A stretch of 46,691 nucleotides of DNA from a virus. Below the pieces are notes generated by a model, which had not been told where the DNA came from, made no database searches, and saw nothing but the letters and a program-made list of their open reading frames with translations. Both the position numbers and the translations under genes were made by a program. Of this stretch, positions 1 through 22,179 are shown in pieces (position 1 is the stretch's first letter; every line of letters starts with the position of its first letter). The DNA lies in the IMG/VR virus record IMGVR_UViG_3300045988_173330; one strand, 5' to 3'.

Positions 1-55
1 TTTTAAGGGGGCAGAATCGCTTGGTTTTAGGGGGCAGCTTACACTGGATTTTCCA
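1..55. repeat. Left terminal inverted repeat (55 bp), made of two tandem units at 1-24 and 25-47
   Basis: ttttaagggggcagaatcgcttggttttagggggcagcttacactggattttcca is the exact reverse complement of 46637-46691. Identity stops at position 56 (a, versus c at 46636). Units: TTTTAAGGGGGCAGAATCGCTTGG and TTTTAGGGGGCAGCTTACACTGG. Confidence 0.97.
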
Positions 56-79
56 ATTTGTATCATCAATCATTTAGTT

Positions 80-87
80 TATCTTTG
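80..87 (+). promoter_or_regulatory. Bacteroidota-type -7 promoter box TATCTTTG for the left-arm operon
   Basis: Exact TAnnTTTG match about 115 nt upstream of the ATG at 202. Confidence 0.5.
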
Positions 88-116
88 CTACGTGATTGAA
101 TGATGATGTAAATATA

Positions 117-202
117 CTAGAAGTTCTATATCTAGCATAGAATTTCTAGTTAATTATTGTAAATATGCTAGATTTTCTATAATCAAACCTAGAATATCTA
201 TA
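117..202 (+). promoter_or_regulatory. Operator-like array: four copies of CTAGAnnTTCTAT(A), three direct and one inverted
   Basis: CTAGAAGTTCTATA 117-130; ATAGAATTTCTAG 137-149 (inverted); CTAGATTTTCTATA 168-181; CTAGAATATCTATA 189-202, overlapping the start codon of the CI-like gene. Confidence 0.6.
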
Positions 203-903
203 TGACTTTAAAAGAAAGAATGTTCTATCTAATTGAAAAAGAAGGACTTAATCCAAATCAATTTTATACCATCTCTGGATTAGGAAATGGGTACTTAAAT
301 AATGTAGGTGAAAGTTTCAGAAAGCCAACGATAGAAAAGATAAAAAAAAGCTTCCCGCATTGGAATATGGACTGGATTCTTTATGAAAAAGGAGAGCCTA
401 TTTCCAATATATCTAAAGAAAATATAGAAATTCTAGAAGCCATACCATTAAACCAAAACTATATTATAAACGTACCATTAGTAAATCAATACGCACAAGC
501 AGGTTATTTATGCGGATTTCAAGATGCTGCATATATAGCTACACTACCTACTATACCTTTTATAATAGACCATGAAGCTAAAGGAAACTATGTAGCATTT
601 GAAGTAAGAGGTGACAGTATGAATGATGGAACTGAAGAGAGTTACCTTGAAGGAGACAGACTTCTTTGTAGAGAAATAGCTCCATATCTGTGGGCAGAGT
701 CTAAATTGCATATCCGGAAATGGGATTTCGTTATTGTACATGAAGACGGAATTTTGGTAAAACGAATAATAGACCATAATGTAGAAAATCATACTATTAC
801 AATACACTCTTTGAACGATATGTATCCTGACAGAGTTATTGATTTGGCAGAAGTTAGGCAAATCTTCAATGTGATAGAATTGCAAAGGCCAAGAAGAAGA
901 TAG
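202..903 (+). CDS. CI-type repressor: phage-CI HTH + S24 (LexA-like) self-cleaving peptidase
   Basis: 233 aa. The N-terminal HTH ends ...FPHWNMDWILYEKGEP, as in phage CI repressor HTH domains. The C-terminal has a Ser/Lys dyad context (VRGDSMNDG ... DGILVKRII). Confidence 0.85.
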   Translation: MTLKERMFYLIEKEGLNPNQFYTISGLGNGYLNNVGESFRKPTIEKIKKSFPHWNMDWILYEKGEPISNISKENIEILEAIPLNQNYIINVPLVNQYAQAGYLCGFQDAAYIATLPTIPFIIDHEAKGNYVAFEVRGDSMNDGTEESYLEGDRLLCREIAPYLWAESKLHIRKWDFVIVHEDGILVKRIIDHNVENHTITIHSLNDMYPDRVIDLAEVRQIFNVIELQRPRRR

Positions 904-941
904 TTTAAAAGTTTAATATACAAACTATTAAAACTAATACT

Positions 942-2420
942 ATGAAATTCAATCAATACACATGGAACCTATATAAGCAATCTTCTGACGGACAAAAAGC
1001 TATTAAGGAGTTTGAGGAACCATCCAACAATGATACGATGATGGATTTGGTTTTCAAATACAATCCAAGAATGAAGTTATGGTTTAATGATGACAAATCC
1101 AGACTATCCATATCAAACATCAGTGAAAGCTTATGGTGTTACAATATCTGCGAATTTCCAGATGAGGAAAGACCTAATACACTGGAAGAAGCGAAAGAAA
1201 AGTATGAAGATGTTCTTTTTCGTGGGTTAACAGACAATGATGAAGTACTAATACCAGTCAACGACTATGAAATGATGTTGAATAGCATAACATGGACATC
1301 ATTCTTATTATATTATTTTGCACCAGAGTTTTTCTTCCCTAATATATTTATTTACCGTTTCTTTGATTTACATAAGATAGCAGATATGTTTGAGATAGAT
1401 TTACCGTCTATCCCAAAGAAATCAAACTATAAGGCGAGATGTATGTACTACTGGAGTTTATGCGAAGTGTTTTATCGATTTAGGGCAGAGAATGAGCTTT
1501 CTCCAGCAGAATTATGCGCTTTCCTATATGACTTTGCACCCAACTTCATGCCCCAAAAAGAAGCAGACGTTCCACAGCCAACACAAGCATGGTGTATCGG
1601 TGGATTGATTGATAAAAATGAATTATTTAGAACTACTTTTTGGCAAGCGAATCCAGAAACAAAGAAAGGCGATATTCTCATTCATTACGAAACCGCTCCA
1701 ATTAGTGCAATTACCCGAGTATGGATAGCTCAAACAGATGGAGTGATAGACCCATTCTTTCATTACTATGGAAACACCTACATAGGGAATAAAATTGATA
1801 TTCCACATATCAGCCTGAAAGAACTCCGAGAAGATAAATACTTCTCCAATCATCCGCTTGTTCGCAAGAACTTTCAAGGGGTAAGCGGATGGTCAATGAG
1901 TGGCGCGGATTATTCGGAACTCCTGCGAATGATAAAGGCAAAAGGATTTGACACTGATGTTCTGCCCAAACTATACGTTCCGACATTACCTAAAGGAATA
2001 GTTATAGAGTATGAACATGATGTGGAGCAACTGTTATTAGAGCCGTTATTAAACTCTATGGGATGGTATGAAAAGAAAGACTTCATCCGGCAGTTACCTA
2101 TTCAAGCAGGGAGAGGACATCGGGTGTTCCCGGATTACGCCTTGCACTATGACAACAAACCGGACGAAGAAAAAGCGAAAGTTCTGATTGAAGCCAAACT
2201 TCACATGAAGAACAACCAAGACATAGAAGCAGCCTTCTTGCAAGCACGTTCATACGCTCGGCTATTAGGTTCTTCTGCTATTGTCTTATGTGACAAGGAC
2301 TATTTACTTGTATATGAGAAGAAAGATAACTTCGACCGAGACAGTTATAAGAAATACTACTGGGGAGAACTTGAAAATCCCGATGTGTTCAACGAATTAA
2401 AGAACAAACTAAATATCTAA
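942..2420 (+). CDS. Putative modification-sensing nuclease: EVE/PUA-like central domain + C-terminal PD-(D/E)xK (HsdR-N/Mrr-like) domain
   Basis: 492 aa. FWQANPETKKGDILIHYETAPISAITRVWIAQTDG...HISLKELRED resembles EVE-domain topology (inference). FPDYALHYD...KVLIEAKLH gives a D...ExK nuclease motif. Confidence 0.55.
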   Translation: MKFNQYTWNLYKQSSDGQKAIKEFEEPSNNDTMMDLVFKYNPRMKLWFNDDKSRLSISNISESLWCYNICEFPDEERPNTLEEAKEKYEDVLFRGLTDNDEVLIPVNDYEMMLNSITWTSFLLYYFAPEFFFPNIFIYRFFDLHKIADMFEIDLPSIPKKSNYKARCMYYWSLCEVFYRFRAENELSPAELCAFLYDFAPNFMPQKEADVPQPTQAWCIGGLIDKNELFRTTFWQANPETKKGDILIHYETAPISAITRVWIAQTDGVIDPFFHYYGNTYIGNKIDIPHISLKELREDKYFSNHPLVRKNFQGVSGWSMSGADYSELLRMIKAKGFDTDVLPKLYVPTLPKGIVIEYEHDVEQLLLEPLLNSMGWYEKKDFIRQLPIQAGRGHRVFPDYALHYDNKPDEEKAKVLIEAKLHMKNNQDIEAAFLQARSYARLLGSSAIVLCDKDYLLVYEKKDNFDRDSYKKYYWGELENPDVFNELKNKLNI

Positions 2421-2424
2421 GATT

Positions 2425-3390
2425 ATGATAATCACAACTACTAATAATATAGAAAATTATTCAATAAAACGATACTTAGGTGTAGTAAATGCGAATATAG
2501 TTATTGGAGCAAATTTTTTCTCTGATTTTGCAGCATCACTAACAGATGTTTTTGGCGGACGCTCTAATACCTATCAAAACAAGCTAAACACCATATACAA
2601 GGAAGTAATGGCTGAATTAAAAGCAAAAGCCAAATCTTTTCAGGCTGATGCTATTGTTGGATTACATATAGACTTTGACGAAGTTTCCGGTGGAGGAAAA
2701 TCCATGTTTATGGTATCTGCATCTGGAACTGCTGTTATGATAGAAAATAACTTTGAAGATAGATACTTCATGTACAAAGCTCTCAGTGACATTCATGACT
2801 ATTGGAAAAAAGGATTTCTATCAGAAGAAGAATACAATTATGAAAAAGCAAGGATTATAGAAAAGTATAATAGCGCAATTTCGGCAGAGGTTACAGTAGT
2901 CAAAGAAACTAAAGAATACGAAGCAAAAAAGTTAAGAGAGCAAGAAGAACAAGAAGCTTATACTAAGAAAGTTCTTGAAGAAAAGCTAATCATAGCAAAG
3001 AAGGAATTAGAAAACAGATGCCCATGTTCTGAAGATACCATAAAAGAAACTACACATCTTCAAATACAAGCATCAGACTACAATAATATTCCATATAATA
3101 CTGACGATTCTATGGAAAGTATAATCGCAAAGTTTATTCGGTTAAACAGAATACCTGAAGCTTGCAAATATTACATGGATGAAACCGGATTGAACGATAC
3201 AGATGCTATTGAGTTTGTAGTTGATACTTATAAGAAAATAGACCAGATAGACAAAGATGCTTTTGAGAGGCTTCTTAATAAATTGAGGGTATTAAAAAAT
3301 AAAGGGTTTATTGAGCAAGCAATTAATGAATATCAAAAATTTACCCTATCAGAAAAAAATGCGGCAGAAACATTTATTAATGATTTATAA
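2425..3390 (+). CDS. YbjQ/UPF0145-domain protein with SHOCT-like motif and helical C-terminal repeats
   Basis: 321 aa. The first ~105 aa (GGRSNTYQNKL...ADAIVGLHIDFDEV...SASGTAV) match the YbjQ family pattern. KKGFLSEEEYNYEKARIIEKY is SHOCT-like, followed by coiled coil and two L7/L12-CTD-like helical units. Confidence 0.7.
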   Translation: MIITTTNNIENYSIKRYLGVVNANIVIGANFFSDFAASLTDVFGGRSNTYQNKLNTIYKEVMAELKAKAKSFQADAIVGLHIDFDEVSGGGKSMFMVSASGTAVMIENNFEDRYFMYKALSDIHDYWKKGFLSEEEYNYEKARIIEKYNSAISAEVTVVKETKEYEAKKLREQEEQEAYTKKVLEEKLIIAKKELENRCPCSEDTIKETTHLQIQASDYNNIPYNTDDSMESIIAKFIRLNRIPEACKYYMDETGLNDTDAIEFVVDTYKKIDQIDKDAFERLLNKLRVLKNKGFIEQAINEYQKFTLSEKNAAETFINDL

Positions 3391-3402
3391 AATAGACTGA
3401 TT

Positions 3403-3681
3403 ATGGTTGACTTTCTAACCATCATACTCCTAATATTCGGAGTACTGCAAATCATCCTCTTCTTCAAGGTATGGGGAATGACGAATGACATCAAAGAGAT
3501 AAGGAACAAGTACCTTAAAGACGAGGACGAGAAACGAAGACAAAAAGCAGAATACGACCCAACCCCAAAATCAGCGGTGGGGTTAAAACAACAATATAGC
3601 CGGAATTATTCCCCGGCTTTTTCTTTCCCTATTCGCAAGTTGTGCAAATGTTGTGCAGATAGCATAAAAAGAAAATGCTAA
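3403..3681 (+). CDS. Small N-terminally membrane-anchored protein (3' end uncertain)
   Basis: 92 aa. A hydrophobic helix FLTIILLIFGVLQIILFFKVW is followed by a charged helix. The last ~25 codons run through an intrinsic-terminator-like hairpin at 3598-3623, so the C-terminus may not be genuine. Confidence 0.45.
   Translation: MVDFLTIILLIFGVLQIILFFKVWGMTNDIKEIRNKYLKDEDEKRRQKAEYDPTPKSAVGLKQQYSRNYSPAFSFPIRKLCKCCADSIKRKC
3598..3623 (+). terminator. Intrinsic-terminator-like hairpin AGCCGG-loop-CCGGCT followed by TTTTTC
   Basis: 6-bp GC-rich stem plus a T-run, located inside the 3' part of ORF 3403-3681. Confidence 0.4.
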
Positions 3682-3710
3682 CAAGTTGTCAATGAACCTA
3701 TTAGCATTTT
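3672..3710. terminator. Bidirectional terminator-like hairpin between convergent genes
   Basis: AAAATGCTAA (3672-3681) pairs perfectly with TTAGCATTTT (3701-3710). A/T runs lie on both sides. It sits between the + operon end and the - gene ending at 3802. Confidence 0.55.
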
Positions 3711-3801
3711 TCCTTGTGATTCCGTTGCCACTACTTTTCATACTGGCTGATAGTCAATTATATATCTTTTGTTACCTAAATTACTTTTAGGAAAGGAGGT
3801 T

Positions 3802-3999
3802 TTAATCAACACCTGGCATTGAACAATACACATAGTAATCTTCCTCAATACAAGTTATTTTAACGTCAAATCCATCAGGGTCAATTCCGTCTGTGCTGAT
3901 GCAAATAGTATCTCCTACTTTCCCTAATAATTCTTTTATTTCCACCTCAAAACTGAACTGCCCAGCTTCAACAATATAGAGATACGCTTTTTTATCCAT
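3802..3999 (-). CDS. Hypothetical 65-aa protein, coupled downstream of the XRE repressor
   Basis: The ORF starts 2 nt after the stop of 4001-4381 on the same strand. It is acidic and has no recognisable motif. Confidence 0.45.
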   Translation of the reverse strand: MDKKAYLYIVEAGQFSFEVEIKELLGKVGDTICISTDGIDPDGFDVKITCIEEDYYVYCSMPGVD

Positions 4000-4000
4000 A

Positions 4001-4381
4001 TTACTTCTGCTTTTGGATTAATATTTGAATTGTTCTTTCTTTCTCAGTTATCACTCTTTCTTTTTCCTCCAATAGAGCGTTGAGATGCTCTATCTCTTTG
4101 CGACACTCGCTTAAAGTTATATCTCCAGAGATTTTATTACCATTGCCCTTAACTTGATGACCTATATTAATTCCAGAAGAGTTTATATCTCTATCAAAAA
4201 AATAATCTATTGGTACATTAAAATAATCTGCTATAATTTCCAGGTTGTCGGCACCAGGAATCGAAGTGTTATTAAGCCAAACATATAAGTTTGATTTAGA
4301 TATACTTGTGTCTTTCAAAAACTGTGCTTGACTGATCTTTCTATCTTCAAATAATCTTCTTATTTTATCAGGATTAAACAT
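4001..4381 (-). CDS. XRE-family HTH repressor with C-terminal coiled coil (immunity-switch candidate)
   Basis: 126 aa. ISQAQFLKDTSISKSNLYVWLNNTSIPGADNLEIIADYFNVPIDYFF is a classic Cro/CI-type HTH. It is divergent from the early operon. Confidence 0.8.
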   Translation of the reverse strand: MFNPDKIRRLFEDRKISQAQFLKDTSISKSNLYVWLNNTSIPGADNLEIIADYFNVPIDYFFDRDINSSGINIGHQVKGNGNKISGDITLSECRKEIEHLNALLEEKERVITEKERTIQILIQKQK

Positions 4382-4512
4382 GTTATACTATTTATACTAG
4401 ATTTAAATAATAATATAAGATTAAAATAATAGGATTAATATTTTGATATTAGACTATTATTTTAAACCTTTGCGTTATAAATATAATAATAACAATCGTA
4501 ATATTTAAGATT
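4382..4512. promoter_or_regulatory. AT-rich divergent promoter/operator region between the XRE repressor and the early operon
   Basis: 131-bp intergenic spacer with short repeats (TATACTA x2, GATTAA x2, TTAATAT/ATATTA inverted). No exact TAnnTTTG box seen. Confidence 0.4.
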
Positions 4513-4713
4513 ATGGAAGAGAAAAAGCAAAAAATGGTACCCAAGTACCATTACGACCAGATGGAGAAAAGCACGAGACTGAGGCTCCGTGATGAGTTCC
4601 TAAGAAGAAGCGGTATGTCATTGATTACATTCTACGACAAGTTAAGAAAAGACTCCTTCAAACCTTTGGAAAGAGAACTATATGAGAACATTTTCATAAT
4701 TCAACAAAATTAA
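4513..4713 (+). CDS. Hypothetical early protein (Cro/Xis-sized)
   Basis: 66-aa basic ORF, first gene of the rightward early operon. Confidence 0.5.
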   Translation: MEEKKQKMVPKYHYDQMEKSTRLRLRDEFLRRSGMSLITFYDKLRKDSFKPLERELYENIFIIQQN

Positions 4714-4727
4714 GAACCAATCAAATT

Positions 4728-4988
4728 ATGGAGGAATTTAAAAGAATACCCTTCGGTGGTAATCCCTATGCGGATTTTGAGTTTTTCAAGGTAGAATTAA
4801 AAGTCTGCGATGTGAAATACACTCCAGAGCAGATTTATGCACACTTTGAATTCACAAGTGGGTACAAAGTAGATGTACAAGGTACATTTTATCCCTCACT
4901 AATTCGCAAAGCTATAGTTCAAGTTCGCGAAATGGAGCAAGCACATATTACAAACTCATCACGTTGTGAAATTCATGCCGATAACTAA
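4728..4988 (+). CDS. Hypothetical early protein
   Basis: 86-aa ORF in the operon series. Confidence 0.5.
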   Translation: MEEFKRIPFGGNPYADFEFFKVELKVCDVKYTPEQIYAHFEFTSGYKVDVQGTFYPSLIRKAIVQVREMEQAHITNSSRCEIHADN

Positions 4989-5532
4989 CATCGAGTTCTA
5001 CAACACCCCCGAAGGTGATGTGATGATTAAAGAACTTGGGCATGCGGCAGTTGTGCTTTGTGAGGACAACCGCCCGACCATCGAGTACATGCTTGCTGTC
5101 ATCAGGGACAGATACCCGAAAGCACATGCCAGGTTAATGCAACTTTACTCCAGTAGTACAATGAATAGGTGGCATTATGAATTCCGGGTAGTTCACCGCT
5201 TCATCCGCTGCAACTTCGGCGAGTATGACCAATACAACCTTGACATCAATAAGGATGGACAATTCGTATTCGAGGAGGTAAAGTGCCCACTACGAGGTGA
5301 GTGCGAACATGAGGGAGTGATTTGTCGCCCGGAACTTGACACGGCACTAACCGCCCGTGAGATGAATGTTTTCAGACTCATCGCTTCCAATTGCCAGACG
5401 GATGATATTGCAGCGGAACTGCACATATCACCTTATACGGTGAACCGCCATCGGGAGAATATCAAAGCGAAAATCAAGGTTCATAATGTGAGTGAGATGA
5501 TTTCTTACTGGCATCAGAACCAGATGAAATGA
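4966..5532 (+). CDS. LuxR/GerE-type HTH transcription regulator with Cys/His-rich linker
   Basis: 188 aa. The C-terminal REMNVFRLIASNCQTDDIAAELHISPYTVNRHRENIKAKIKV is a GerE-type HTH. It is preceded by VKCPLRGECEHEGVIC. Confidence 0.75.
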   Translation: MKFMPITNIEFYNTPEGDVMIKELGHAAVVLCEDNRPTIEYMLAVIRDRYPKAHARLMQLYSSSTMNRWHYEFRVVHRFIRCNFGEYDQYNLDINKDGQFVFEEVKCPLRGECEHEGVICRPELDTALTAREMNVFRLIASNCQTDDIAAELHISPYTVNRHRENIKAKIKVHNVSEMISYWHQNQMK

Positions 5533-6327: not shown

Positions 6328-9300
6328 ATGTACTTTACTCAAGACGATATAAAACGAATCAAGGAGGCTTCCAAAGGCAGGCTCCTTGATGTTATCGGTG
6401 ACTTCCACGAACTACGCAAACGGGGGGCCGAATATAAATGCGAATGCCCTAAATGCCATGGACAAGAGAAGTTACATATCTCTCCGGCCAAACAGATTTT
6501 CAAATGCTTCAGTTGCCCGGATATAAAAGGCAAAGAACCGCTGGACTATCTGCAGAGGGCAGAAGACATGCAATTCCTGGAGGCATGCGATTACCTGGCG
6601 CGCAAATTCAATGTATTGCTGGACCCCAAACCGGAGAAGAAACCTTCCAAACCCACAAAAATGAAGAAACGGAGCAAGGAGGCCAAGGGAGAAAGTGTCG
6701 ATACATTCTGCGCCCGTATGCTTGCTGACAGCGGTCTGACCTATCAGGACGTGACGGCACATATCTTCAAGAAGGGAGATACACAGAGCATTTTCGAGGC
6801 GAAGACTTTCCGTCCGGGAACCGTTGACGAATACGGCAATATCGTTGACGGGGATGATGTCATCATCGAATATTACGACCTGGACGGCATGCCGGTCACT
6901 TATACCCGTAAGCTGCCGGGGCGTGGCAAGCAGGAACTCAAAGTGTATTACCGCGTCCGCTGGCAATTCCCGGAAGAACACCGGGACAAGGAAGGGAAAC
7001 CGTTCAAGTACAAGTCTCCTGCCGGCAGCGGTACGCCCATATACATCCCGGAACGCATGAGGCAGATGTACAAGAGGAAAGAGCAGTTCCCAAGACTCTA
7101 CATCCAGGAAGGAGAAAAGAAAGCGGAAAAGGCATGCAAGCACGGTATCCCCTCCATAGCGGTCAGCGGCATCCAGAACCTGGGACAGAAAGGGGCGTTG
7201 CCGGAGGATCTTGTCAAGATAATCACTGTCTGCGGAGTCAAGGAAGTGGCTTTCATTTTTGATGCGGACTGGAATGACCTCTCCCGTAACATTAAGTTCA
7301 ATGCTCCAGTTGATTTTCGACCACGCAGTTTCTTCTCCGCTGCCCGAAACTTCAAGGAATATATGCGTATGCTGAAGAACCGCGGTATCATGGTGGAAAT
7401 ATTCATTGGCCACATCAACAAGAACGATGAAGGCGACAAGGGAGTGGACGACCTCTTGGCCGATAAGCTGGCCGGTCATGAAGAGGAACTGGCCGAAGAC
7501 CTGGAATTTGCCTGCAACGAGAAGTCCGGAATGGGAAAGTATGTGGAAGTGTTCAAAATCACCACATGGAATGACCAGAAACTACGGGAATTATGGAACC
7601 TGCACAGCCATGAAAAATTTGCCGAGCAGCACCGCGAGGTCCTGCAGGAGCTTCCGGAATTTATCTTTGGTCGCTATGCCTGGAAGTTTGACGAGAACGG
7701 CAAATTGGTATCTGCCCTACCCTATGATGAGGATGAGAAGTTCTGGAATGAGGACTACAAGGAAACGAACGGTAACAGGGTGCCGGTGTTTGAATATGAT
7801 TATGTGGCCGCCAAGACCTTTTTCCAGAACCGGGGTATCGGCCGTTACCGCCTGCTCGATACCAAACTCTGGACATATATCCATCTGGAGCCGCCGGTAG
7901 TCCGCACCATTGACGTGGAAGACGCACGCGATTTCATGTTCGCCTTTGCCGAACAGAACTGCAGCCGTTTCGTCAACAACCAGCTACTCAAGGGAGGCTC
8001 GCAATACGTCGGACCGTTCCAGATGTCAAGGCTCGCCTTCATCCAACCGAACTTCATCTCCCCGTCCCGTGACGAGCAATATTTCTATTTCCGTGACCGT
8101 TGCTGGCACATCACCCAGCATGAGGTCAAGGAAGTGGGATATGAAAGCATCACCCACCAGATATGGGATGAACAACGGAAGAACACCGATGCCAGGTACC
8201 TCGGCCACCCCCTCATTATATTCAGGGAGAAGGACGGCAGGTATGACTACGAACTCTCTCCGGAAGGCAGGAAATGCCACTATCTCCAGTTCCTTATCAA
8301 TACCAGCAATTTCACCTGGAGAAAGAGGCCGGAAGAGATTGAGGAGAGTGAAATCTTTGAAAACAATCTTCATCTGCTTTCTAAGATGTGCGCCATCGGC
8401 TACATGCTGATGGAATGCAAGGACGCGAACGTGACACGTGCCGTTATCGGCATGGACGGCAAGCAGTCGGAAGTCGGTGACAGCAACGGACGCAGCGGCA
8501 AGTCACTTGTCGGTGAGCTGATGCGCCAGGTTGTCGATACAGTCTATATATCCGGGAAACGGACGGACATCTTCAACGACAGCTTTATCTGGAATGACAT
8601 CGACGAACGGACACGCCTGGTATTCATCGACGATGTCATGCTGAACTTCAACTTCGAGTTTCTGTTCCCCAATCTCACCGGAGACTGGACTGTGAACAAA
8701 AAGGGGGGCGCACGTATCACTTATCCGTTCGCCAAATCACCCAAAGTATATATCCCCACCAATCATGCCATCCGCGGTACCGGTTCCAGCTATACCGACA
8801 GGCAATGGCTGATAGCCTTCTCCGATTTTTATAATGACAAGCACAAGCCCATGGATGATTTCGGGGTACTGTTCTTTTCCGAATGGGACTTCACCCAGTG
8901 GAACCTGACCTGGAACATGCTGGCCAACTGCATACAGCTCTATCTTAAATTCGGGGTCGTGCAGGCACCGGGCGAACGCCTGCAGCAGCGTAAGCTAAGG
9001 CAGGAGATTGGCGAGACCATCATATCCTGGGCGGACGAATACTTCAGCAGCGAGGAGCACTGTCGCCGTACCCCACGCAAGGAGATTTATGACAATTTCT
9101 GCAACTATGATCCGCAGCAACGCAAGTACATCACTTCCACCGCCTTCAAGGACAAGATAAAAAAATACTGCGAATGGAAGGGCTGGGTGTTCAACCCACA
9201 CAAGTATGACGCCAAAAGCGGTCTGCCTCTCTTCCTGGACAAGGACGGGAAACCGGTTATAGATGACAAGTCCGGAGGAGTGGAGTATTTCACCATAGGC

Positions 9301-9381
9301 AAGACAGCCGGAGAGCAGACACCCCAGAGTGACCCGCATGAACTACCGGTTGGCAATCCGGACAACAAACTTGCATTCTGA
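6328..9381 (+). CDS. Primase-helicase: zf-CHC2 + Toprim + P4/D5-type P-loop NTPase
   Basis: 1017 aa. Zinc finger CECPKCHGQEKLHISPAKQIFKCFSC; Toprim-like IQEGEKKAEKACKHGIPSIAVSG...FIFDADWND; Walker A NGRSGKSLVGE and Walker B LVFIDDV. Confidence 0.9.
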   Translation: MYFTQDDIKRIKEASKGRLLDVIGDFHELRKRGAEYKCECPKCHGQEKLHISPAKQIFKCFSCPDIKGKEPLDYLQRAEDMQFLEACDYLARKFNVLLDPKPEKKPSKPTKMKKRSKEAKGESVDTFCARMLADSGLTYQDVTAHIFKKGDTQSIFEAKTFRPGTVDEYGNIVDGDDVIIEYYDLDGMPVTYTRKLPGRGKQELKVYYRVRWQFPEEHRDKEGKPFKYKSPAGSGTPIYIPERMRQMYKRKEQFPRLYIQEGEKKAEKACKHGIPSIAVSGIQNLGQKGALPEDLVKIITVCGVKEVAFIFDADWNDLSRNIKFNAPVDFRPRSFFSAARNFKEYMRMLKNRGIMVEIFIGHINKNDEGDKGVDDLLADKLAGHEEELAEDLEFACNEKSGMGKYVEVFKITTWNDQKLRELWNLHSHEKFAEQHREVLQELPEFIFGRYAWKFDENGKLVSALPYDEDEKFWNEDYKETNGNRVPVFEYDYVAAKTFFQNRGIGRYRLLDTKLWTYIHLEPPVVRTIDVEDARDFMFAFAEQNCSRFVNNQLLKGGSQYVGPFQMSRLAFIQPNFISPSRDEQYFYFRDRCWHITQHEVKEVGYESITHQIWDEQRKNTDARYLGHPLIIFREKDGRYDYELSPEGRKCHYLQFLINTSNFTWRKRPEEIEESEIFENNLHLLSKMCAIGYMLMECKDANVTRAVIGMDGKQSEVGDSNGRSGKSLVGELMRQVVDTVYISGKRTDIFNDSFIWNDIDERTRLVFIDDVMLNFNFEFLFPNLTGDWTVNKKGGARITYPFAKSPKVYIPTNHAIRGTGSSYTDRQWLIAFSDFYNDKHKPMDDFGVLFFSEWDFTQWNLTWNMLANCIQLYLKFGVVQAPGERLQQRKLRQEIGETIISWADEYFSSEEHCRRTPRKEIYDNFCNYDPQQRKYITSTAFKDKIKKYCEWKGWVFNPHKYDAKSGLPLFLDKDGKPVIDDKSGGVEYFTIGKTAGEQTPQSDPHELPVGNPDNKLAF

Positions 9382-11254: not shown

Positions 11255-11717
11255 TTTTGAAAACGTCGGAGGATTGTTGCAGGTGATTGCCGTGCCTCCG
11301 GCCTCGTTCGTGCAAATCCGTAAGGACTATGCCGCCGGTCTGAACTATCTGGAACTCCGCAACCGGGAGGATATTGTTTCCATACCGGTATATGCCAATG
11401 ACACCTATTCCTATAATGAGGACAAGGAGGTGAATGATGCGGGGGATTGCTGGAATGTGTCGGTCGAAGGGGTGATTCCAAAACTTTCCTCAGTGAATCA
11501 TCATTTAATGGAGACGCTGGAGCGTGGCTTGTGGTATGTACTGGCAGTGGACGGCAACGGGGTGGTCCATTGGTGCGGGCAGGAGGACGCACTCATGCTG
11601 TTCAACACGAACAAGACAAGCGGACGTTCCGTGTCGGAACGGAACGGTACCTCATTCACGTTCACCTGCATCCAGGATGAACCGACCTCCTATATTGAAA
11701 ACATGGAGGAAATATAG
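11235..11717 (+). CDS. Hypothetical structural-type protein; C-terminal half resembles that of 14225-14827
   Basis: 160-aa ORF followed by a strong terminator. VLAVDGNGVVHWCG...NGTSFTFTC parallels FIVTDNNGTNYLMG...NTLHYTFTA in the other protein. Confidence 0.55.
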   Translation: MKAMHYDFENVGGLLQVIAVPPASFVQIRKDYAAGLNYLELRNREDIVSIPVYANDTYSYNEDKEVNDAGDCWNVSVEGVIPKLSSVNHHLMETLERGLWYVLAVDGNGVVHWCGQEDALMLFNTNKTSGRSVSERNGTSFTFTCIQDEPTSYIENMEEI

Positions 11718-11779
11718 CCGTACGGCTTCCTCTGCCGACACACAACACGCTTTCGTTCAAACGTTTATCTGCTTACCGT

Positions 11780-11812
11780 CGGTACCCGATGTCCTTGGGT
11801 ACCGTTTTTTTT
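11780..11812 (+). terminator. Strong intrinsic terminator
   Basis: CGGTACCC / GGGTACCG 8-bp stem, 9-nt loop, T8 run. Confidence 0.85.
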
Positions 11813-11841
11813 GCGTTTTTCTTTGCGCAAAAATAAGTTTT

Positions 11842-12960
11842 ATGAACGAGACAGTTATCACATTATTCGGAACGATTGATCGGTATTGGTACAATAAAAA
11901 TTATCTGAAATACTTTCTTGACAAGGCCAAAGGCCAGCCCGTACGCCTGAAGGTTTCCAGTTATGGCGGTGATGTGGCCGAAGCGGTTGCCATGTCCGCC
12001 CTGATGGCCGAGCACGGCAATGTGACGGTGGAGTTCATCAGCTTCAACGCTTCGGCAGCCACTGTACTGGCATTCGGTGCCAAGTCCATCGAGATGCACG
12101 AGGACGGCATGTGGCTGGCGCATAAATGCAGCCTGGGAGTGGACATCTGGGGCCAGCTCAATGCGGACCAGTTGGAGGACACCATCAAGGAACTGCAGAA
12201 CAAGAAGAAGAGCGCGGAAGCCATTGACCTGATGATTGCACAGAAGTACATCAACCGTAGCGGCAAAAGCCTGAAGGACATTATCACCTTGATGGAAGAG
12301 GAACGCTGGATGCCTGCCGCCGAAGCCAAGGAATGGGGATTCATAGACAAGATCATTCCCGGTACCCATAAAAAGCCGCAGGTGACCAATGAAATGACCG
12401 ACTGCTTCACCGCGCTTGGTCTACCGTTGCCGGCTATCGATTCGGAGGGGAAGCCGGAACCGGAAGGCCGTGACAAAAACTTGGTCTCCCAGATTATCGA
12501 CGGTATCAAAGGGCTGTTCCCTACCGGCAACAAGACTGACATTTCTAATTCTTCAAATACAGTTATGCGTAAAGAATTTACTTTCATCAACCAGATCCTC
12601 AACAGCGAAGGCATTGAGGAAAAAGACGGCAAGATGTTGCTTACCGTAGAGAATCTGCAGGCCATCAATGACGCCGTCAAGACCGCCAACGAAGCGAAAG
12701 CCAAAGCGGAGAATGACCTGGCTGTCGCCAACACTGCCAAGGAGACCGCCGAAAACAGTCTGACGGCAGTCGTGAATGACCTTGACAGCCTGAGTGACAG
12801 CATCAAGAATGCCGCCGACAACAAGGCCAAGGTACAAGTTATCCGTGACATTGTCGCCAAGATACCCGGAACGGGTACCGACAGCCACCGGGAAGCGAAC
12901 GAAGACAACAAGTTTGCGGACATCGCCACAGACCCGATCAACAGTTTTGAGAATGAGTAA
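11842..12960 (+). CDS. ClpP-like prohead protease fused to a coiled-coil scaffold-like C-terminus
   Basis: Start moved to the in-frame ATG at 11842, because the upstream part of ORF 11524 crosses the terminator at 11780-11812. LKVSSYGGDVAEAVAM...FNASAATVLAFGA resembles the ClpP/S14 family. The C-terminal is Ala/Lys/Glu-rich coiled coil. Confidence 0.75.
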   Translation: MNETVITLFGTIDRYWYNKNYLKYFLDKAKGQPVRLKVSSYGGDVAEAVAMSALMAEHGNVTVEFISFNASAATVLAFGAKSIEMHEDGMWLAHKCSLGVDIWGQLNADQLEDTIKELQNKKKSAEAIDLMIAQKYINRSGKSLKDIITLMEEERWMPAAEAKEWGFIDKIIPGTHKKPQVTNEMTDCFTALGLPLPAIDSEGKPEPEGRDKNLVSQIIDGIKGLFPTGNKTDISNSSNTVMRKEFTFINQILNSEGIEEKDGKMLLTVENLQAINDAVKTANEAKAKAENDLAVANTAKETAENSLTAVVNDLDSLSDSIKNAADNKAKVQVIRDIVAKIPGTGTDSHREANEDNKFADIATDPINSFENE

Positions 12961-12977: not shown

Positions 12978-14213
12978 ATGGATTTTAAAGCACCTATTGA
13001 CATTACCGCCGTTCTGACCGCGGTAAAAAAGCACAAGGACATCCTGAAGGCGGTCGACAAGCTCGACGCCTCAGAGGTGTTGAGACATTTCACTCCGGTA
13101 CCGGGCATAACCGACTCCCTTGAACTGGGCAAGGTGGAGGGCGGAAGCATCTCCGGCAAGTACACCGGAAAGTTCACTGCCGGAAAGTATCTGGGCAAGA
13201 TTGTTCCCCGACGTCTGGTAGTGCGTCCCGTTGTAATGGAGATGTCCGACGAGCCTGAGCGCTACCGACGCACCTACATTGCCGAGGTTCCCGGTACACT
13301 CCGCAAGGAACACCCGTTCGAGCTGTGGCTGATCAACCACGGGCACGAACTGGCATCCAATGACCTGCTGTTTGCCATTTTCACGGCAAAATACAGTGCG
13401 GATGAAGAAAAGACGGACATTCAAGACTCTTTCGACGGTATCGGTACCATTATCACTGAAGGCGAAGCTGTCGGGGACATCTCCAGTGCCGAGGGAAACG
13501 TTTATGCGACCGGTGAACTGTCCCGCGCCAATATCGGGGAGAAGCTGCTGGAAATGTGGCGCCACATGCCGCGCACTTTCAAGCGCAAGAAGAACATCAA
13601 GATGTTCATTTCCGACGATCTGGGCGACATGTACGATGACTGGCGCAAGGACGAAGGCACCATTGTCATCGGACTCAAGGAGGACACTTCCGACACGCAG
13701 CACCTGCTTGGTTCCAACAACCGTTGTGAGCTGGTGCGCGTTCCGAACCTTCCCGACGGCAGCCAGTTCGTCATGCTGACCACCAAGGAGAACGTATGCT
13801 ACGGCTTTGACAAGGAGAGCGACTTCAAGTCCATCAAGCCGTTCATGTCCGGCAATCCCTATACGTTCGATGCTGCGGGCAAGTATGTGATCGGTTTCCA
13901 GTTCGTGTCTGTGCACAAGTCCGAGTTCTGCGTCAACGACCGTCCGGTGGACCCGGAAGGGACCAATCCGTTCGGATACATTGAAGTGACCATTACGCCG
14001 GATGAAGCGGTCAACAACGGCGGTAAATGGCGCATCCAGGGCGAGGAAGCCTGGCGTGAGTCCGGTACATATGCGGCAGTTCCCGGTGGCAAGGAATACA
14101 CCGTCGAGTTCCTGGAGGCTGCCGGATACACCACTCCTGCCGTGCAGAAGAAGACGCCCGCTGCAGGCAAAGTGGAGAAGGTGACGGGCACCTATGTTGT
14201 TAAATCCGAATAA
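12978..14213 (+). CDS. Major capsid protein candidate
   Basis: 411-aa ORF immediately downstream of the protease/scaffold gene. Call rests on size and synteny. Confidence 0.65.
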   Translation: MDFKAPIDITAVLTAVKKHKDILKAVDKLDASEVLRHFTPVPGITDSLELGKVEGGSISGKYTGKFTAGKYLGKIVPRRLVVRPVVMEMSDEPERYRRTYIAEVPGTLRKEHPFELWLINHGHELASNDLLFAIFTAKYSADEEKTDIQDSFDGIGTIITEGEAVGDISSAEGNVYATGELSRANIGEKLLEMWRHMPRTFKRKKNIKMFISDDLGDMYDDWRKDEGTIVIGLKEDTSDTQHLLGSNNRCELVRVPNLPDGSQFVMLTTKENVCYGFDKESDFKSIKPFMSGNPYTFDAAGKYVIGFQFVSVHKSEFCVNDRPVDPEGTNPFGYIEVTITPDEAVNNGGKWRIQGEEAWRESGTYAAVPGGKEYTVEFLEAAGYTTPAVQKKTPAAGKVEKVTGTYVVKSE

Positions 14214-14959: not shown

Positions 14960-15850
14960 ATGTCAAAGATTACACAGAACTATATCGAGGCGCGCAGGGA
15001 CGGCATCAAGTGGCTGAACTCGCAGAAACGTGACTACAGCACCGGTGTGAATATCCTGACCCGTTCTGGATATAAGGGGTTTGTCGCCGCACGTCTGGCA
15101 CGCCAGGGCGAAAAGCCGCATACCCGCGAGAAGCTGGAGTATGAAATCCGGCAGATGATCAAGGTGTGGTACCATCCGGATGACCCGCGCTTTGAGGATG
15201 TGGACCTGGCAGATGATGCAATGCCGGGCAATGACGGGCGTTCCGAGACGGTTCCCGAAGAGACGGCTGCCGCCATTGTCGCCGTTGCGGAGAGGGAACT
15301 GGCGCGTGAGGCGGACGAACAGCCCGCCTATCCTCCGGTGATGGCCAAAATCATCTATGACTTCCGGGAATGCTACAACGAACGTTCACGCCAGCACCGG
15401 ATGCTTGCCGGACTGGGTGAGACAAACACGCAGGCTGTATGCACGCAGCGCAAGGATATTGTCGCCCGTATAGCCTTTCTCTCCAACCGCATGACACTGC
15501 TGGCTGCCATCAAAAGGCAGTTCGAGCAGGACAGGGAACTGCCGACTGAAGAGCAGCTGGACGAACTCTACAAAAAAGCGGATACCCCCGAAGAAAATCC
15601 GGAAAAGGAAGAGGACGAGGCCGACATCAGTTCCCTATCCGTGGAAGAGCTGAGGAAAGCGAAATCCAATGCCAAGAGCAAGATTACCAAGGCAAGGAAC
15701 ATGCTGCTGTACTCTTCGGAAAGCAAGCCCAAGGACGGCAAGGAGAATCCCCTTCCCGACTGCCCCAAACGCGTGAAATACGAGAAGAAGGTGGCTGCCC
15801 AGGAAGCACTGGTGGAAAGGATAGAATATCGTTTGGCAGAACTGCAATAG
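14960..15850 (+). CDS. Hypothetical protein with acidic/coiled-coil C-terminus
   Basis: 296-aa ORF, first gene of the packaging-region operon. Confidence 0.6.
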   Translation: MSKITQNYIEARRDGIKWLNSQKRDYSTGVNILTRSGYKGFVAARLARQGEKPHTREKLEYEIRQMIKVWYHPDDPRFEDVDLADDAMPGNDGRSETVPEETAAAIVAVAERELAREADEQPAYPPVMAKIIYDFRECYNERSRQHRMLAGLGETNTQAVCTQRKDIVARIAFLSNRMTLLAAIKRQFEQDRELPTEEQLDELYKKADTPEENPEKEEDEADISSLSVEELRKAKSNAKSKITKARNMLLYSSESKPKDGKENPLPDCPKRVKYEKKVAAQEALVERIEYRLAELQ

Positions 15851-15858
15851 GTTAGGTT

Positions 15859-16476
15859 ATGTTGGTCTGTTGCAGCGAGATTGAGAATAAGATGATGCCG
15901 GCGGATGATGCAGTAAGTCCTATGCAGGGAGACCGATACCCGACAGGCTACATCCGCCGAACGGATGCGGCAGCCTCCGGCCACGACCTGGCTGCGGAGA
16001 AGCTGCTGCATCCGGACGCCATGGGGGTGCTGGTACCCGGCAGGGACAAGCATTTCTACTCTTCAGGGGCGTTCAACCTGATCCAGTTGATTTTCTATAT
16101 TCTCAGACAGACGGGACCGGCACACCTGCTGCTTACCACCTATTCCATCTCCATGGACAGCATTGCGGCGATTCATCGGAAGGTGGAAACGGGCGAGCTG
16201 TTGTCAGTGCGGTTCCTGATAGACAACCGGGTGCGCAGCATATCACCCAAACCGTTCGATTATCTGGTGACCACGTTCCCGGACTGCTACCGTTGCCTCG
16301 CGCTTCATGCGAAGGTGGCGCTGCTGTATAACGAGGACTGGAAGATTACCGTAGTGGGCAGCCAGAACGCCACGCACAACCCGAAGCTGGAACGTGGAAT
16401 CATCCATACCGGCAGAGATATTTTTGATTTTGACTTTAAAATGCTGAATGATGAATTTGACTCAGGAACAACGTGA
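15859..16476 (+). CDS. Single-HKD phospholipase-D-superfamily (Nuc-like) protein
   Basis: 205 aa. LHAKVALLYNEDWKITVVGSQNATHNP fits the HxK...GSxN signature of the PLD/Nuc family. The usual Asp position is Asn. Confidence 0.6.
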   Translation: MLVCCSEIENKMMPADDAVSPMQGDRYPTGYIRRTDAAASGHDLAAEKLLHPDAMGVLVPGRDKHFYSSGAFNLIQLIFYILRQTGPAHLLLTTYSISMDSIAAIHRKVETGELLSVRFLIDNRVRSISPKPFDYLVTTFPDCYRCLALHAKVALLYNEDWKITVVGSQNATHNPKLERGIIHTGRDIFDFDFKMLNDEFDSGTT

Positions 16477-16735
16477 GGAGATAGAGAAGATGGCCTATCG
16501 TTTGATCCCTCCGGGGCTGATAGCCATCAATATAGGTGCCGATGAGACGGACTTTCTCGCGGAACTCCGCACACCGGGCACCGAAGTCCGGACCGCCTTC
16601 TACCGGGGGCATCTTCGCCAGACGGTTGAACTCCGGGAGTCACTCATCAAGTCGGCCGTCAATGGCAGCAACCCGGCACAGCAGGAGCTTATCAAGTTCA
16701 TCAAATCGCAACAGCAGTATCTTGAGTATGAATAA
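16448..16735 (+). CDS. Hypothetical small protein in the packaging module
   Basis: 95-aa ORF overlapping both neighbours. Confidence 0.5.
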   Translation: MMNLTQEQREEIEKMAYRLIPPGLIAINIGADETDFLAELRTPGTEVRTAFYRGHLRQTVELRESLIKSAVNGSNPAQQELIKFIKSQQQYLEYE

Positions 16736-17330
16736 CAACCGTCTGACGGCATCCAAAAGCAAGGCCGCACTGGAGGAGCAATCCTACGACCTTATACAGC
16801 AGCACATCATCGACCCGGAGAACAGTCCGCTGCCGGAGCATCTGCGTGTGCAGTGCAACCGGGTGCTGCAGATAGCACGTCTTTTGGATGACTATCCGAA
16901 CGAGAGCCACATCATCAACATCATGCTGGCAAAATACCGTATCTCGCGTACCCAGATAAGGAAGGACATCGCCCTGGCAAAAGAGCTGTTCAAGACACAG
17001 CACCAGTTCGACTGGGACTTCTGGTATGCCTGGATGATCAAGGACCAGATTCAGCTTATCCGGGATTGCAAGCTCAAAGGTGATCTCAAGCAATGGAACA
17101 ACGCCAAGAAAGTGCTGCATCAGATGATTGGTGAGAAGCCGGCTTCCGTCGAGGACCCGCGACGCATGGAGAAGAACGTATTCTACATCCAGATCAACAG
17201 TATGGGGCAAAAGGTGGATATTCCCCTAAATGCCGTCCGCAACCTTTCCCAGGAAGAGCAGAAGGTTCTGGTGGATTCGATGTACACGCCTATCGACGAC
17301 GCACAAGCTGAAGAAATAATGAACTCATAA
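16728..17330 (+). CDS. Hypothetical protein; small terminase subunit candidate by position only
   Basis: In-frame ATG at 16728 overlaps the upstream stop (ATGAATAA). The earlier part of ORF 16536 overlaps 16448-16735 in another frame. Confidence 0.4.
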   Translation: MNNNRLTASKSKAALEEQSYDLIQQHIIDPENSPLPEHLRVQCNRVLQIARLLDDYPNESHIINIMLAKYRISRTQIRKDIALAKELFKTQHQFDWDFWYAWMIKDQIQLIRDCKLKGDLKQWNNAKKVLHQMIGEKPASVEDPRRMEKNVFYIQINSMGQKVDIPLNAVRNLSQEEQKVLVDSMYTPIDDAQAEEIMNS

Positions 17331-17340
17331 CAGATTACCC

Positions 17341-17553: not shown

Positions 17554-17565
17554 TACGGCAGGACA

Positions 17566-20680: not shown

Positions 20681-20699
20681 CAATTTAATCCATACAATT

Positions 20700-22172: not shown

Positions 22173-22179
22173 AAAGAGA

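Follow-up and report, generated by a model that had tools for sequence, protein, structure and literature searches.

The stretch of DNA analysed here (the window) comprises 46,691 nucleotides of IMG/VR virus record IMGVR_UViG_3300045988_173330 and opens and closes with a perfect 55-nt inverted repeat (positions 1-55 and 46637-46691). Between the repeats lie a four-gene operon headed by an S24-type repressor gene, a phage attachment site, the immunity module and core of a prophage, a gene for the defence protein PD-Lambda-5_A, and the end of an integrative mobilisable element (IME) encoding a UvrD/HelD-like helicase (Table 1).

Table 1. Features of the window, from left to right
Feature	Position	Strand	Remarks
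IS21-family IRR (IstB-side inverted repeat), outermost 55 nt	1-55		IS body would lie left of window
Promoter and operator-like region of S24 repressor operon	56-201	+	operator function putative
HTH-Peptidase_S24 (LexA/CI-like) repressor, 233 aa	202-903	+	Pfam Peptidase_S24, E 4.8e-9
492-aa protein, C-terminal PD-(D/E)xK (HSDR_N-like) nuclease motif	942-2420	+	coupled to S24 gene
321-aa protein, N-terminal YbjQ_1, then weak EAD11-like stretch	2425-3390	+	YbjQ_1 E 3.7e-30
92-aa ORF of unknown function	3403-3681	+	last gene before attL
attL core TTGTGATTCCGTTGC	3714-3728		duplicate of tRNA-Arg(TCT) 3' end
Phage's own AT-rich immunity module	3729-4965		GC 0.32; HTH_3, HTH_19 matches
65-aa ORF	3802-3999	-	immunity module
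cI-like HTH repressor	4001-4381	-	immunity module
cro-like 66-aa gene	4513-4713	+	immunity module
86-aa ORF	4728-4988	+	immunity module
Prophage core	4966-42167	+	GC 0.49; includes LuxR-type regulator and 591-aa protein
Primase	6328-9381	+	prophage core
ClpP-type head protease	11524-12960	+	prophage core
Putative capsid protein	12978-14213	+	prophage core
Holin	23583-24179	+	prophage core
GH108 endolysin	35010-35534	+	prophage core
Tape measure protein	36116-39628	+	prophage core
DUF5053	41739-42167	+	prophage core
Terminator-like hairpin, 13-bp stem, ends late operon	42181-42211	+	left edge of cargo hotspot
PD-Lambda-5_A	42412-43815	+	GC 0.30; PADLOC E 1.9e-150; alternative start GTG 42388
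Terminal 2.84 kb of 10.6-kb IME	43796-46636	-	inserted in prophage
871-aa UvrD/HelD-like (helicase IV-like) protein	43984-46599	-	IME end cargo; UvrD-helicase E 3.2e-37
Second, inverted IS21 copy, outermost 55 nt of IRR	46637-46691		IS would lie right of window

Base composition shows steps along the window. In 1-kb sliding windows, G+C lies at 0.32-0.39 over positions 1-5000, rises to 0.42-0.56 in the core and falls to 0.31-0.38 from 42000 onwards; a maximum-likelihood fit with two change points places the steps at 5003 and 41281, with fitted values of 0.342, 0.496 and 0.356 for left arm, core and right arm (log-likelihood ratio 355, against at most 31 in 100 block shuffles). The sequence-only reading had proposed two AT-rich arms from the G+C of four single 60-nt lines, and recounting gave the same 19, 33, 15 and 19 of 60. 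Both low-GC segments are thus real, but the left one, put at 1-4500, extends to about 5.0 kb. By component, G+C from left to right is 0.35, 0.32, 0.49, 0.30 and 0.37, with 0.41-0.46 in the host flanks. The arms had further been said to hold nuclease, helicase and sensor-like genes, which is correct in kind: they contain the PD-(D/E)xK-like 492-aa gene, the helicase, PD-Lambda-5_A, YbjQ, two repressors and one cro-like gene, with no virion or replication gene in either arm according to the gene annotation of the window. The terminal gene of each arm does read inward (202-903 on the plus strand, 43984-46599 on the minus strand); this shared direction is a coincidence.

The core is that of a very common gut siphovirus-like prophage that integrates at tRNA-Arg, and copies with 95-100% identity occur in over 100 IMG/VR contigs as well as in many Bacteroides genomes. 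The true left end of this prophage lies at attL (3714-3728): the same 15-mer is found at the attB of an empty site (L273) and at the attR of another locus (L256), overlapping the tRNA-Arg gene, and homology to the canonical prophage (L238) stops at 3707, beyond which canonical copies have unrelated host genes. The immunity module just inside attL occurs in every canonical prophage that has host genes on its flanks and is mosaic in more distant relatives. Towards the other side, identity to the canonical prophage is 100% up to 43795; in the canonical copies PD-Lambda-5_B comes next, followed by small genes, a tyrosine integrase, tRNA-Arg and rpiA. The window lacks the phage methylase, the integrase and attR.

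Positions 56-3713, beyond attL, lie outside the prophage. The S24 repressor gene is the first of a tightly packed four-gene operon and is preceded by three direct CTAGAAnnTCTATA repeats and one inverted copy. Its partner, the 492-aa protein, matches HSDR_N weakly (E 0.0027, below the cut-off), and all of 22 homologues keep P397, D398, E417 and K419; its family comprises 823 members, which the sources call either 'type I restriction endonuclease subunit R' or hypothetical. The pair of S24 and 492-aa genes is kept at 64% identity. The third operon position, occupied here by the YbjQ gene (its EAD11 match, E 0.0042, is below the cut-off), is variable and holds other genes in relatives, and the 92-aa ORF is common to three loci whose upstream cargo differs. 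At two empty sites (L273 and L275), tRNA-Arg and rpiA come immediately after the S24-492-YbjQ block. Upstream, the S24 gene of relatives is transcribed divergently from the early module (WYL_2/AAA_24/DUF3127/HNH) of a second prophage-like element; in two loci (L268 and L269) this neighbour is a cluster with a 1609-aa gene and not the WYL_2 replication module, and in the window's own lineage it is the IS. Judged from the more distant relatives, the left flank is probably the att-proximal immunity/accessory module of a tandem second prophage-like element.

On the right, a strong terminator had been noted at the boundary of the low-GC segment, and a terminator-like hairpin indeed closes the late operon there. 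Homology to relatives that share the core and carry different cargo breaks exactly at 42212-42216, matching the boundary of 42213 read from the sequence. The compositional step itself is graded between 41.3 and 42.2 kb. The region between 41403/42212 and the integrase module is a cargo hotspot, with 22 distinct AT-rich insert types in 53 relatives, and in the window this hypervariable slot is filled by PD-Lambda-5_A (42213-43795), a phage-borne, restriction-modification-like defence cargo. PD-Lambda-5 has been described as a system carried by prophages (Vassallo et al. 2022, PMC9519451). In canonical prophages PD-Lambda-5_B, a D12 methylase, follows directly; here it is absent, and the C terminus of PD-Lambda-5_A reads ...FMVILEYLF instead of ...FMVTLWSQIESE, its last nine codons having been replaced through insertion of the IME at the 3' end of the gene. 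Of the two arms, only 3729-4965 and 42213-43795 are phage DNA.

Canonical phage sequence ends at 43795 and the IME match starts at 43796. Positions 43796-46636 match the ends of IME copies with 99.7-100% identity; these copies occupy at least 10 unrelated chromosomal sites without the phage, and their gene order is int, DUF5906, Toprim_2, Mob_Pre, 192 aa, 219 aa and helicase. None of the collections searched contained the far junction, at which the integrase side would meet the methylase gene of the phage. At the identical site of the phage, a sister element that shares this end brings in Gabija, an EcoRI-like methylase and GmrSD. Among protein families, the 871-aa helicase itself fits helicase IV best (E 1e-100 to NCBIfam DNA helicase IV, below the cut-off), and solved UvrD, Rep, PcrA and GajB match it in the core only. 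The window holds no neighbouring GajA (OLD-type ATPase-TOPRIM).

These distributions bear on the suggestion that one older AT-rich element, with the terminal repeats as its ends, has the phage nested within it. Nesting as such does occur, with an IME inside the prophage and the prophage beside another prophage-like element. But the left arm adjoins an empty attB without the helicase, the helicase is found in an IME that is complete in itself, has an integrase and ends of its own and lacks the left arm, and the block counts lie far apart (10718 for the 492-aa protein, 2845 for the helicase, 29 for the PD-Lambda-5_A junction variant). The repeats, moreover, face the wrong way, because the IS bodies would lie outside the window. 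Since left arm and helicase are each found without the other and without the core, a single AT-rich host element is excluded and the arms are not halves of one element; we regard this reading as hardly conceivable.

What, then, are the terminal repeats? In 27 other IMG/VR loci the sequence outward of the 55 nt is kept (the 3' end of IstB), and the inward sequence differs each time. They belong to an IS21-family element of 2,635 bp encoding IstA (526 aa, rve) and IstB (260 aa), whose IRL and IRR share 51 identical nucleotides followed by GTGC in IRL and AAAA in IRR. Bases 52-55 from the IS terminus are AAAA at both window ends, i.e. of the IRR type, which points to two separate inverted copies: the window ends would be their outward-lying IRR ends, with the IS bodies, as other contigs suggest, beyond both ends. 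Two copies presenting the same end to the window would account for the 55-nt 'TIR', and the assembler, to judge from other contigs, probably ended the contig 55 nt, one k-mer, inside the repeat.

The repeat described earlier exists but delimits neither a phage nor an older TIR element. A linear or TIR-bounded phage genome that gained foreign cargo next to both ends is accordingly very unlikely, even if its premises are partly sound: the arms are AT-rich accessory DNA, and the slot right of 42212 is a true phage cargo hotspot filled with a system known to be prophage-borne (PMC9519451). Against it, the repeats are the ends of IS21 copies that lie beyond the window, the phage ends are attL and an attR that the window lacks, non-phage DNA makes up 3.65 kb of the left arm and 2.84 kb of the right, and the Pfam calls across the genome contain no protein-primed polymerase, terminal protein or protelomerase. 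Of that proposal, acquired accessory DNA stands, and so does a core shared with relatives that carry different cargo; the ends as TIRs and the arms as units do not.

Formally, IS, segment and inverted IS also make up a composite transposon, in which the two copies would mobilise the intervening 46.6 kb as a unit. The left IS junction, for which no clean target-site duplication was seen, recurs in nine other loci and is shared by many genomes without the right IS, whereas the right junction is unique to the window, being in none of the other fetched loci; there the IS interrupts the IME's 219-aa gene at its 3' end, and IME copies elsewhere continue unbroken past 46637. A unique right and a shared left junction point to two independent insertions. 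The whole block was not found at a second location, and a truncated prophage with a truncated IME fits random IS hits, making joint mobilisation highly improbable.

Equally improbable is an assembly chimera of unrelated pieces, although the window ends in repeats and the IME is another repeat at which many assemblies break. The order of left flank, attL, core, PD-Lambda-5_A and IME end recurs in genome assemblies: the window is collinear with genome GCA_024790905.1, where two loci (L270 and L255) lie on one 3.1-Mb contig and L255 is 98.8% identical over window positions 31738-46637, and the order is also found in three further loci (L240, L245 and L246). By this collinearity, the stretch appears to be real and not chimeric.

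We consider it very probable that the window is a piece of Bacteroides chromosome between two inverted IS21 copies and not a complete TIR-bounded phage genome; the source is probably B. uniformis or a close relative. The order would be an IS end of 55 nt, the S24/PD-(D/E)xK/YbjQ/92-aa operon, attL, a prophage of about 40 kb, the IME end in the 3' end of PD-Lambda-5_A and the second 55-nt IS end. The prophage's own ends are AT-rich, with a cI/cro switch on the left and the hypervariable accessory slot on the right, so that four independently acquired, unrelated AT-rich modules adjoin around the GC-richer core and, side by side, give two low-GC arms. The AT-rich stretches as horizontally acquired accessory DNA are supported, and the whole is a nested mobile-element mosaic of the ordinary kind.

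Finally, we would like to place these components beside known systems. With ITR-bounded linear phages (protein-primed tectivirus/phi29, N15-type telomere), the contig shares only a perfect terminal inverted repeat, which here is an IS end, and the att sites of the phage lie in a tRNA gene. The IS itself is a regular member of the IS21 family, which consists of the transposase IstA and the ATPase IstB: consecutive IstA (HTH and rve DDE) and IstB (IstB_IS21) genes, 2.6 kb, TG...CA termini and a repeated end motif, TTTTA(A)GGGGGCA, with two copies on the IstA side and three on the IstB side, in line with IstA binding sites. Nothing about it is unusual; two inverted copies simply make the intervening DNA resemble an ITR-bounded genome. 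The phage resembles other tRNA-integrated temperate tailed phages in its tyrosine integrase and its 15-nt core at the tRNA-Arg 3' end, and differs in its Bacteroides host and in core proteins mostly without PHROG or Pfam matches. As for defence, canonical copies of this prophage carry the complete PD-Lambda-5 A+B pair; the window has it split, with B, integrase and attR missing and the A C terminus altered by the IME. The 871-aa protein has its UvrD core in common with GajB of Gabija (GajA and GajB) but is about 370 aa longer. Its IME is similar to Bacteroides IMEs in size (about 10.6 kb), tyrosine integrase, primase-like DUF5906 and Toprim_2, Mob_Pre relaxase, end cargo, short imperfect inverted ends AATCT(C)TGGAATA and many insertion sites next to TTAC-like sequences. 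Such mobilisable elements of Bacteroides include the NBU1, NBU2 and Tn4555 types; the likeness is general and not a family assignment, and the cargo here is a HelD/UvrD-like helicase, not a resistance gene. The slot right of the late operon, in turn, matches the accessory ('moron') and defence hotspots that such temperate phages, P2 and lambdoid phages for example, have beside the integrase/att end: terminator-bounded, reaching from late operon to integrase and filled with interchangeable AT-rich cargo.

The pattern described by the sequence-only reading, two AT-rich arms around a G+C-rich phage core, is real. Its four single-line G+C counts (19, 33, 15 and 19 of 60) were reproduced exactly on recount, and a scan in 1-kb windows gave 0.32-0.39 over 1-5000, 0.42-0.56 for the core and 0.31-0.38 from 42000 onward. 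A two-change-point likelihood fit placed the steps at 5003 and 41281, with segments of 0.342, 0.496 and 0.356 and a log-likelihood ratio of 355, against a maximum of 31 in 100 block shuffles. The pattern is highly significant, but the left step lies nearer 5.0 kb than the 4.5 kb first proposed. The outermost genes do read inward. What does not survive is the entity built on these arms, an element bounded by terminal inverted repeats: the window is a piece of chromosome delimited by two copies of an IS21 element, and it gives a truncated view of a tRNA-Arg prophage. In tetranucleotide usage the core is similar to the flanking host DNA (r = 0.79-0.88); the arm components show poor correlation with the core and with one another (r = 0.2-0.5), noisy values in segments this short, which would fit separate origins for these components.

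Components of the window and of related loci, with position and G+C content
Feature	Coordinates	G+C	Content or remark
Terminal repeats	1-55, 46637-46691		IS21 tips
Left flank	56-3710	0.346	S24, 492-aa, YbjQ and 92-aa genes
attL	3714-3728		
Phage switch module	3729-4965	0.321	65-aa, cI-like, cro-like and 86-aa genes
Phage core	4966-42167	0.493	
Terminator-like hairpin	42181-42211		13-bp stem
PD-Lambda-5_A	42412-43815		PADLOC E 1.9e-150, full length
PD-Lambda-5_A region		0.299	
IME part within window	43796-46636	0.365	
Whole IME		0.426	Genes: integrase (406 aa), 127-aa, DUF5906, Toprim_2, Mob_Pre relaxase, 192-aa, 219-aa, 871-aa helicase
IS21		0.518	
Canonical right end		0.393	
Host flanks		0.41-0.46	
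Early module divergent from S24-type repressor in relatives			WYL_2 / LuxR-like / AAA_24 / DUF3127 / HNH

Where, then, does the phage begin? Genome-assembly look-ups with the phage cI-like protein and with the 492-aa protein of the left flank returned three left-side situations. In canonical prophages, copies flanked by host genes, homology to the window ends at 3707 and host genes follow (an esterase and amylases; ComEC in another copy). In loci of the window's type, the phage comes after the S24, 492-aa, YbjQ and 92-aa genes, and an IS21 usually lies upstream of the S24 gene. In empty-site loci (L273 and L275), the S24-492-YbjQ block directly adjoins tRNA-Arg(TCT) and rpiA, without the phage. 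L273 matches window 1-3728 and then the host DNA on the right of the canonical prophage L256. A 15-nt core, TTGTGATTCCGTTGC, which is the tRNA 3' end, is present at attL of the window, attB of L273 and attR of L256, and tRNA-Arg(TCT) is called at both of the latter. The overlap of these two L273 matches contains the core and thus fixes attL and places 56-3713 outside the prophage. The switch module to the right of attL is the phage's own and occurs in all canonical copies, and left breakpoints in relatives fall at attL (3707-3715) or within variable cargo of the neighbouring element (3399-3422 and 2330). Integrase and attR are not in the window; canonical relatives have a 388-aa integrase (Arm-DNA-bind_5, Phage_int_SAM_5, Phage_integrase). 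Copies at different host sites had raised the idea of a Mu-like transposable phage, which we rejected in view of the integrase, the core shared with tRNA-Arg and the existence of an empty site.

The terminal inverted repeat itself stands as a perfect 55-nt match, but it marks the tips of IS21 copies lying outside rather than the ends of an element. A 37-mer of it is present in 27 IMG/VR contigs, most without further similarity to the window and five with other matches. Aligned on the repeat, these contigs are all alike outward of position 1 and each different inward of ...GGATTTTCCA; the conserved outward side encodes IstB (260 aa, IstB_IS21) and IstA (526 aa, rve, Mu-transpos_C_2), and tandem istA/istB genes of the IS21 family were seen in eight fetched loci. 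The element spans 2635 bp with termini TGGAAAATCC...GGATTTTCCA, and has the TG/CA ends and inner repeats of the IS21 family, with two or three copies of a GGGGGCA-type motif per end. Both of its genes lie outside the window, which holds only 55 nt of each IRR, the IstB-side inverted repeat. IRR and IRL, the IstA-side repeat, are identical over 51 nt and then read AAAA and GTGC, respectively, the sole two forms among all fetched copies (40 and 18 times). AAAA stands at both ends, so the window lies between two different, inverted IS copies, the IstB end of each facing it.

This arrangement argues against a single IS in a circular genome with contiguous arms: one IS would present an IRR and an IRL, matching over 51 nt only, and we reject this reading since both ends are IRR; the ends also share no target duplication. 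As for a composite transposon, the block was not found at a second location, and the left junction commonly occurs with no right IS: it recurs in nine other loci, complete genomes included, and the right junction was found in none of the fetched loci. Nor do the repeats behave as replicon ends, as the sequence runs outward into the IS21 body in at least 27 contigs whose inner flanks are unrelated. No Pfam family of a protein-primed DNA polymerase, terminal protein or protelomerase occurs among the genome's called genes; the replication genes present are a DnaG-type primase and DUF3854. The stop of the contig exactly 55 nt into the repeat would match a de Bruijn assembler at k = 55.

Comparison of an empty with an occupied locus (L268 and L269) showed no clean target duplication of the 4-8 bp typical of the IS21 family, and two more (L270 and L272), compared with L269, have IS21-adjacent deletions upstream of the S24 gene. 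A copy of this same IS21 also interrupts the 492-aa gene in three loci (equivalent to window 1734), and another lies in the tape-measure gene of another relative (L002 and L160), its end about 30-50 nt past the equivalent of window 39176. The arms of six other loci hold IS256-type (Transposase_mut) and IS66 copies. In two loci, two IS21 copies to the left of the S24 gene enclose a DUF4160/DUF2442 pair; it belongs to the same families as window 21495-22172 and is perhaps a remnant of another copy of the phage.

On the right, L256 is 100% identical to window 31739-43795 and continues beyond with a D12 adenine methylase, four small genes, the 388-aa tyrosine integrase, tRNA-Arg and rpiA. The D12 adenine methyltransferase is PD-Lambda-5_B (PADLOC E 2.1e-119), which in canonical copies lies 4 nt 3' of PD-Lambda-5_A and is not in the window. 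Here, insertion of a 10.6-kb integrative mobilisable element (IME), which comes next, has replaced the last nine residues of PD-Lambda-5_A and split A from B. PD-Lambda-5 is a compact prophage-borne system resembling restriction-modification plus abortive infection, described by Vassallo et al.; protection against phage has been demonstrated for the E. coli system alone (PMC9519451). Few index blocks list the junction-specific PD-Lambda-5_A variant (29 vs 40658 for the neighbouring DUF5053 protein), and most contigs with this variant break at the IME, itself a repeat. As called in four loci, PD-Lambda-5_A is only 413 aa, implying an earlier stop near window 43652; these include one canonical copy with the methylase, and the gene may be decaying there.

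The IME portion in the window, its last 2.84 kb, is 99.7-100% identical to the end of the full element, which occurs in ten loci in ten different host contexts and carries its own integrase and relaxase, as an IME should. It has short imperfect inverted ends and TTAC-like targets, and its 219-aa gene is interrupted by the second IS21 copy 23 nt short of the stop codon. The junction of its integrase side with the phage methylase gene had zero matches in viral and metagenome contigs, and the near IME junction had zero in the same searches. The 871-aa helicase is UvrD-like, its best family match being helicase IV (HelD), below the cut-off. We found no GajA (OLD-like ATPase-TOPRIM) in the window or the IME, which leaves this helicase outside a Gabija system. 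A true Gabija pair is present in a sister element: at the identical PD-Lambda-5_A site (equivalent to window 43795-43921), L251 and L252 (GCA_024788155.1) hold a different, larger element with Gabija (OLD-TOPRIM and UvrD), an HTH gene with an EcoRI-like methylase, GmrSD, an integrase and a relaxase. Its first 126 nt are common to the window's IME end, which suggests either cargo exchange between related elements or repeated hits on the same site.

The synteny comparison covered 80 IMG/VR loci anchored on the 591-aa core protein, together with genome loci. In these loci, homology with the window repeatedly breaks off at 41403, 42212-42216 or 43795 and resumes in the module of small genes and integrase. 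Between these points we counted 22 types of insert in 53 loci (G+C 0.30-0.41), encoding among others PDC-S02-like, HIRAN / PDC-M03B-like and DUF7689 proteins and lipoproteins with a YbjQ-like motif; one insert protein is putatively HicB-like. The recurrent breakpoints and swapped inserts make the right boundary a genuine recombination hotspot edge, where the terminator that had been placed at it was also found, as a terminator-like hairpin. The suggestion that relatives share the core and differ in their arms is likewise borne out. By eye, the YbjQ-resembling motif (FVTESNSVSFDYE...IGSV) recurs in lipoprotein cargo of this hotspot in five loci, and a YbjQ protein is also encoded in the window's left flank operon.

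Several features of the core and its relatives lie apart from these boundaries. Window 19600-23500 is a third, internal region of lower G+C (0.42-0.47) with strong GC skew; it contains two minus-strand genes, RadC (20700-21290), the DUF4160/DUF2442 pair and small ORFs. The canonical module near the integrase contains a second copy (L256 14129-14445), at 96.5% identity, of a 317-nt window piece at 23189-23505 (81-aa and 99-aa genes). At the start of a 713-aa tail-fibre-like gene (29693-31834), positions 29699-30106 comprise three tandem 153-nt (51-aa) repeats that are 72-90% identical. Four relatives, unlike the window, have a 202-aa Resolvase-family invertase and short opposed ORFs beside the gene for the large tail protein, in the stretch upstream of the endolysin gene that corresponds to window ~34000-35000; the locus may be a host-range inversion switch. 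In one of them, L257, an RVT_1 reverse transcriptase, DUF4376 and a 2239-aa Laminin_G_3 protein lie just beyond a truncated integrase (15672-20429), an arrangement suggestive of a diversity-generating retroelement in a neighbouring phage.

The closest genome matches are Bacteroides and Phocaeicola (B. muris, B. rodentium and a Phocaeicola MAG, 97-99% for DUF5053). A truncated methylase copy is named Bacteroides uniformis by one source. One carrier assembly is GCA_000154205.1, which we take to be B. uniformis ATCC 8492. The prophage is very widespread, its cI-like protein occurring in 30533 index blocks. The phage database held two core fragments only, MT836146 and MT836778, both unannotated and from human faeces; most core proteins had no match in PHROG, and our literature search returned no description of this prophage.

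Direct observations are which pieces are present and in what order, the shared att core, the junctions of the IS copies and of the IME, and how the contents of the cargo slot vary. The history behind them would run as follows: the phage uses its tyrosine integrase to enter tRNA-Arg next to a prophage-like element already resident there; the slot past the late-operon terminator exchanges defence genes by recombination; the IME later enters PD-Lambda-5_A, and two IS21 copies then land independently. If the right end is present, the 10.6-kb IME and the 2.6-kb IS would have enlarged the prophage from ~43.9 kb to ~57 kb, and packaging may be impaired. It is plausible that the lysogen expresses the arm genes and that they serve in immunity or defence.

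The window is a nested mosaic of mobile elements of known kinds, with nothing new in kind, and its main value is cautionary for completeness calls based on inverted terminal repeats. A perfect terminal inverted repeat can get a contig scored as a complete virus; here it is one k-mer of two inverted IS copies, and the "genome" so scored lacks integrase, attR and half a defence system and includes 6.5 kb of non-phage DNA. It also shows the turnover of defence genes at Bacteroides prophage ends, and is a compact example from gut Bacteroides of how defence and immunity genes accumulate there: a slot with at least 23 alternative contents, an IME between the two genes of a restriction-modification-like system, one tRNA site probably occupied in tandem, and repeated IS21 insertions.

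The most interesting remaining item is the left-flank operon of S24, PD-(D/E)xK and YbjQ genes. Its four genes are separated by 38, 4 and 12 nt, and three direct CTAGAAnnTCTATA repeats lie upstream of the S24 start codon. The 492-aa protein has a PD...ExK motif (P397, D398, E417, K419) invariant in 22 homologues and a Pfam HSDR_N match under threshold; it had no match among solved structures, and its AlphaFold model (mean pLDDT 58) was too poor for a fold search. The S24, 492-aa and YbjQ proteins gave nothing in PADLOC or NCBIfam. In relatives (five loci, one of them, L314, at 64% identity), the S24-type repressor is divergent from an early module, which leads us to interpret 56-3713 as an operon of immunity and accessory genes at the att-proximal end of a second prophage-like element in tandem; in the lineage of the window itself, which now has an IS upstream of S24, this origin is inferred from those relatives. 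The cargo after S24 varies among them (the 492-aa protein with other partners, a 416-aa protein, a kinase-like pair, lipoproteins) and is followed by host DNA or attL. The S24-492 pair is kept, with overlapping genes, at 64% identity, and its downstream partner is swapped between lineages. We tentatively raise the possibility, on balance doubtful, that S24 and the 492-aa PD-(D/E)xK protein, together with a third gene that varies (YbjQ/EAD11-like in the window), form a candidate anti-phage or exclusion cassette acting in lysogeny. Such a cassette would share its transcript with a prophage repressor at the att-proximal end of a Bacteroides prophage family, much as rexAB does with cI in lambda.
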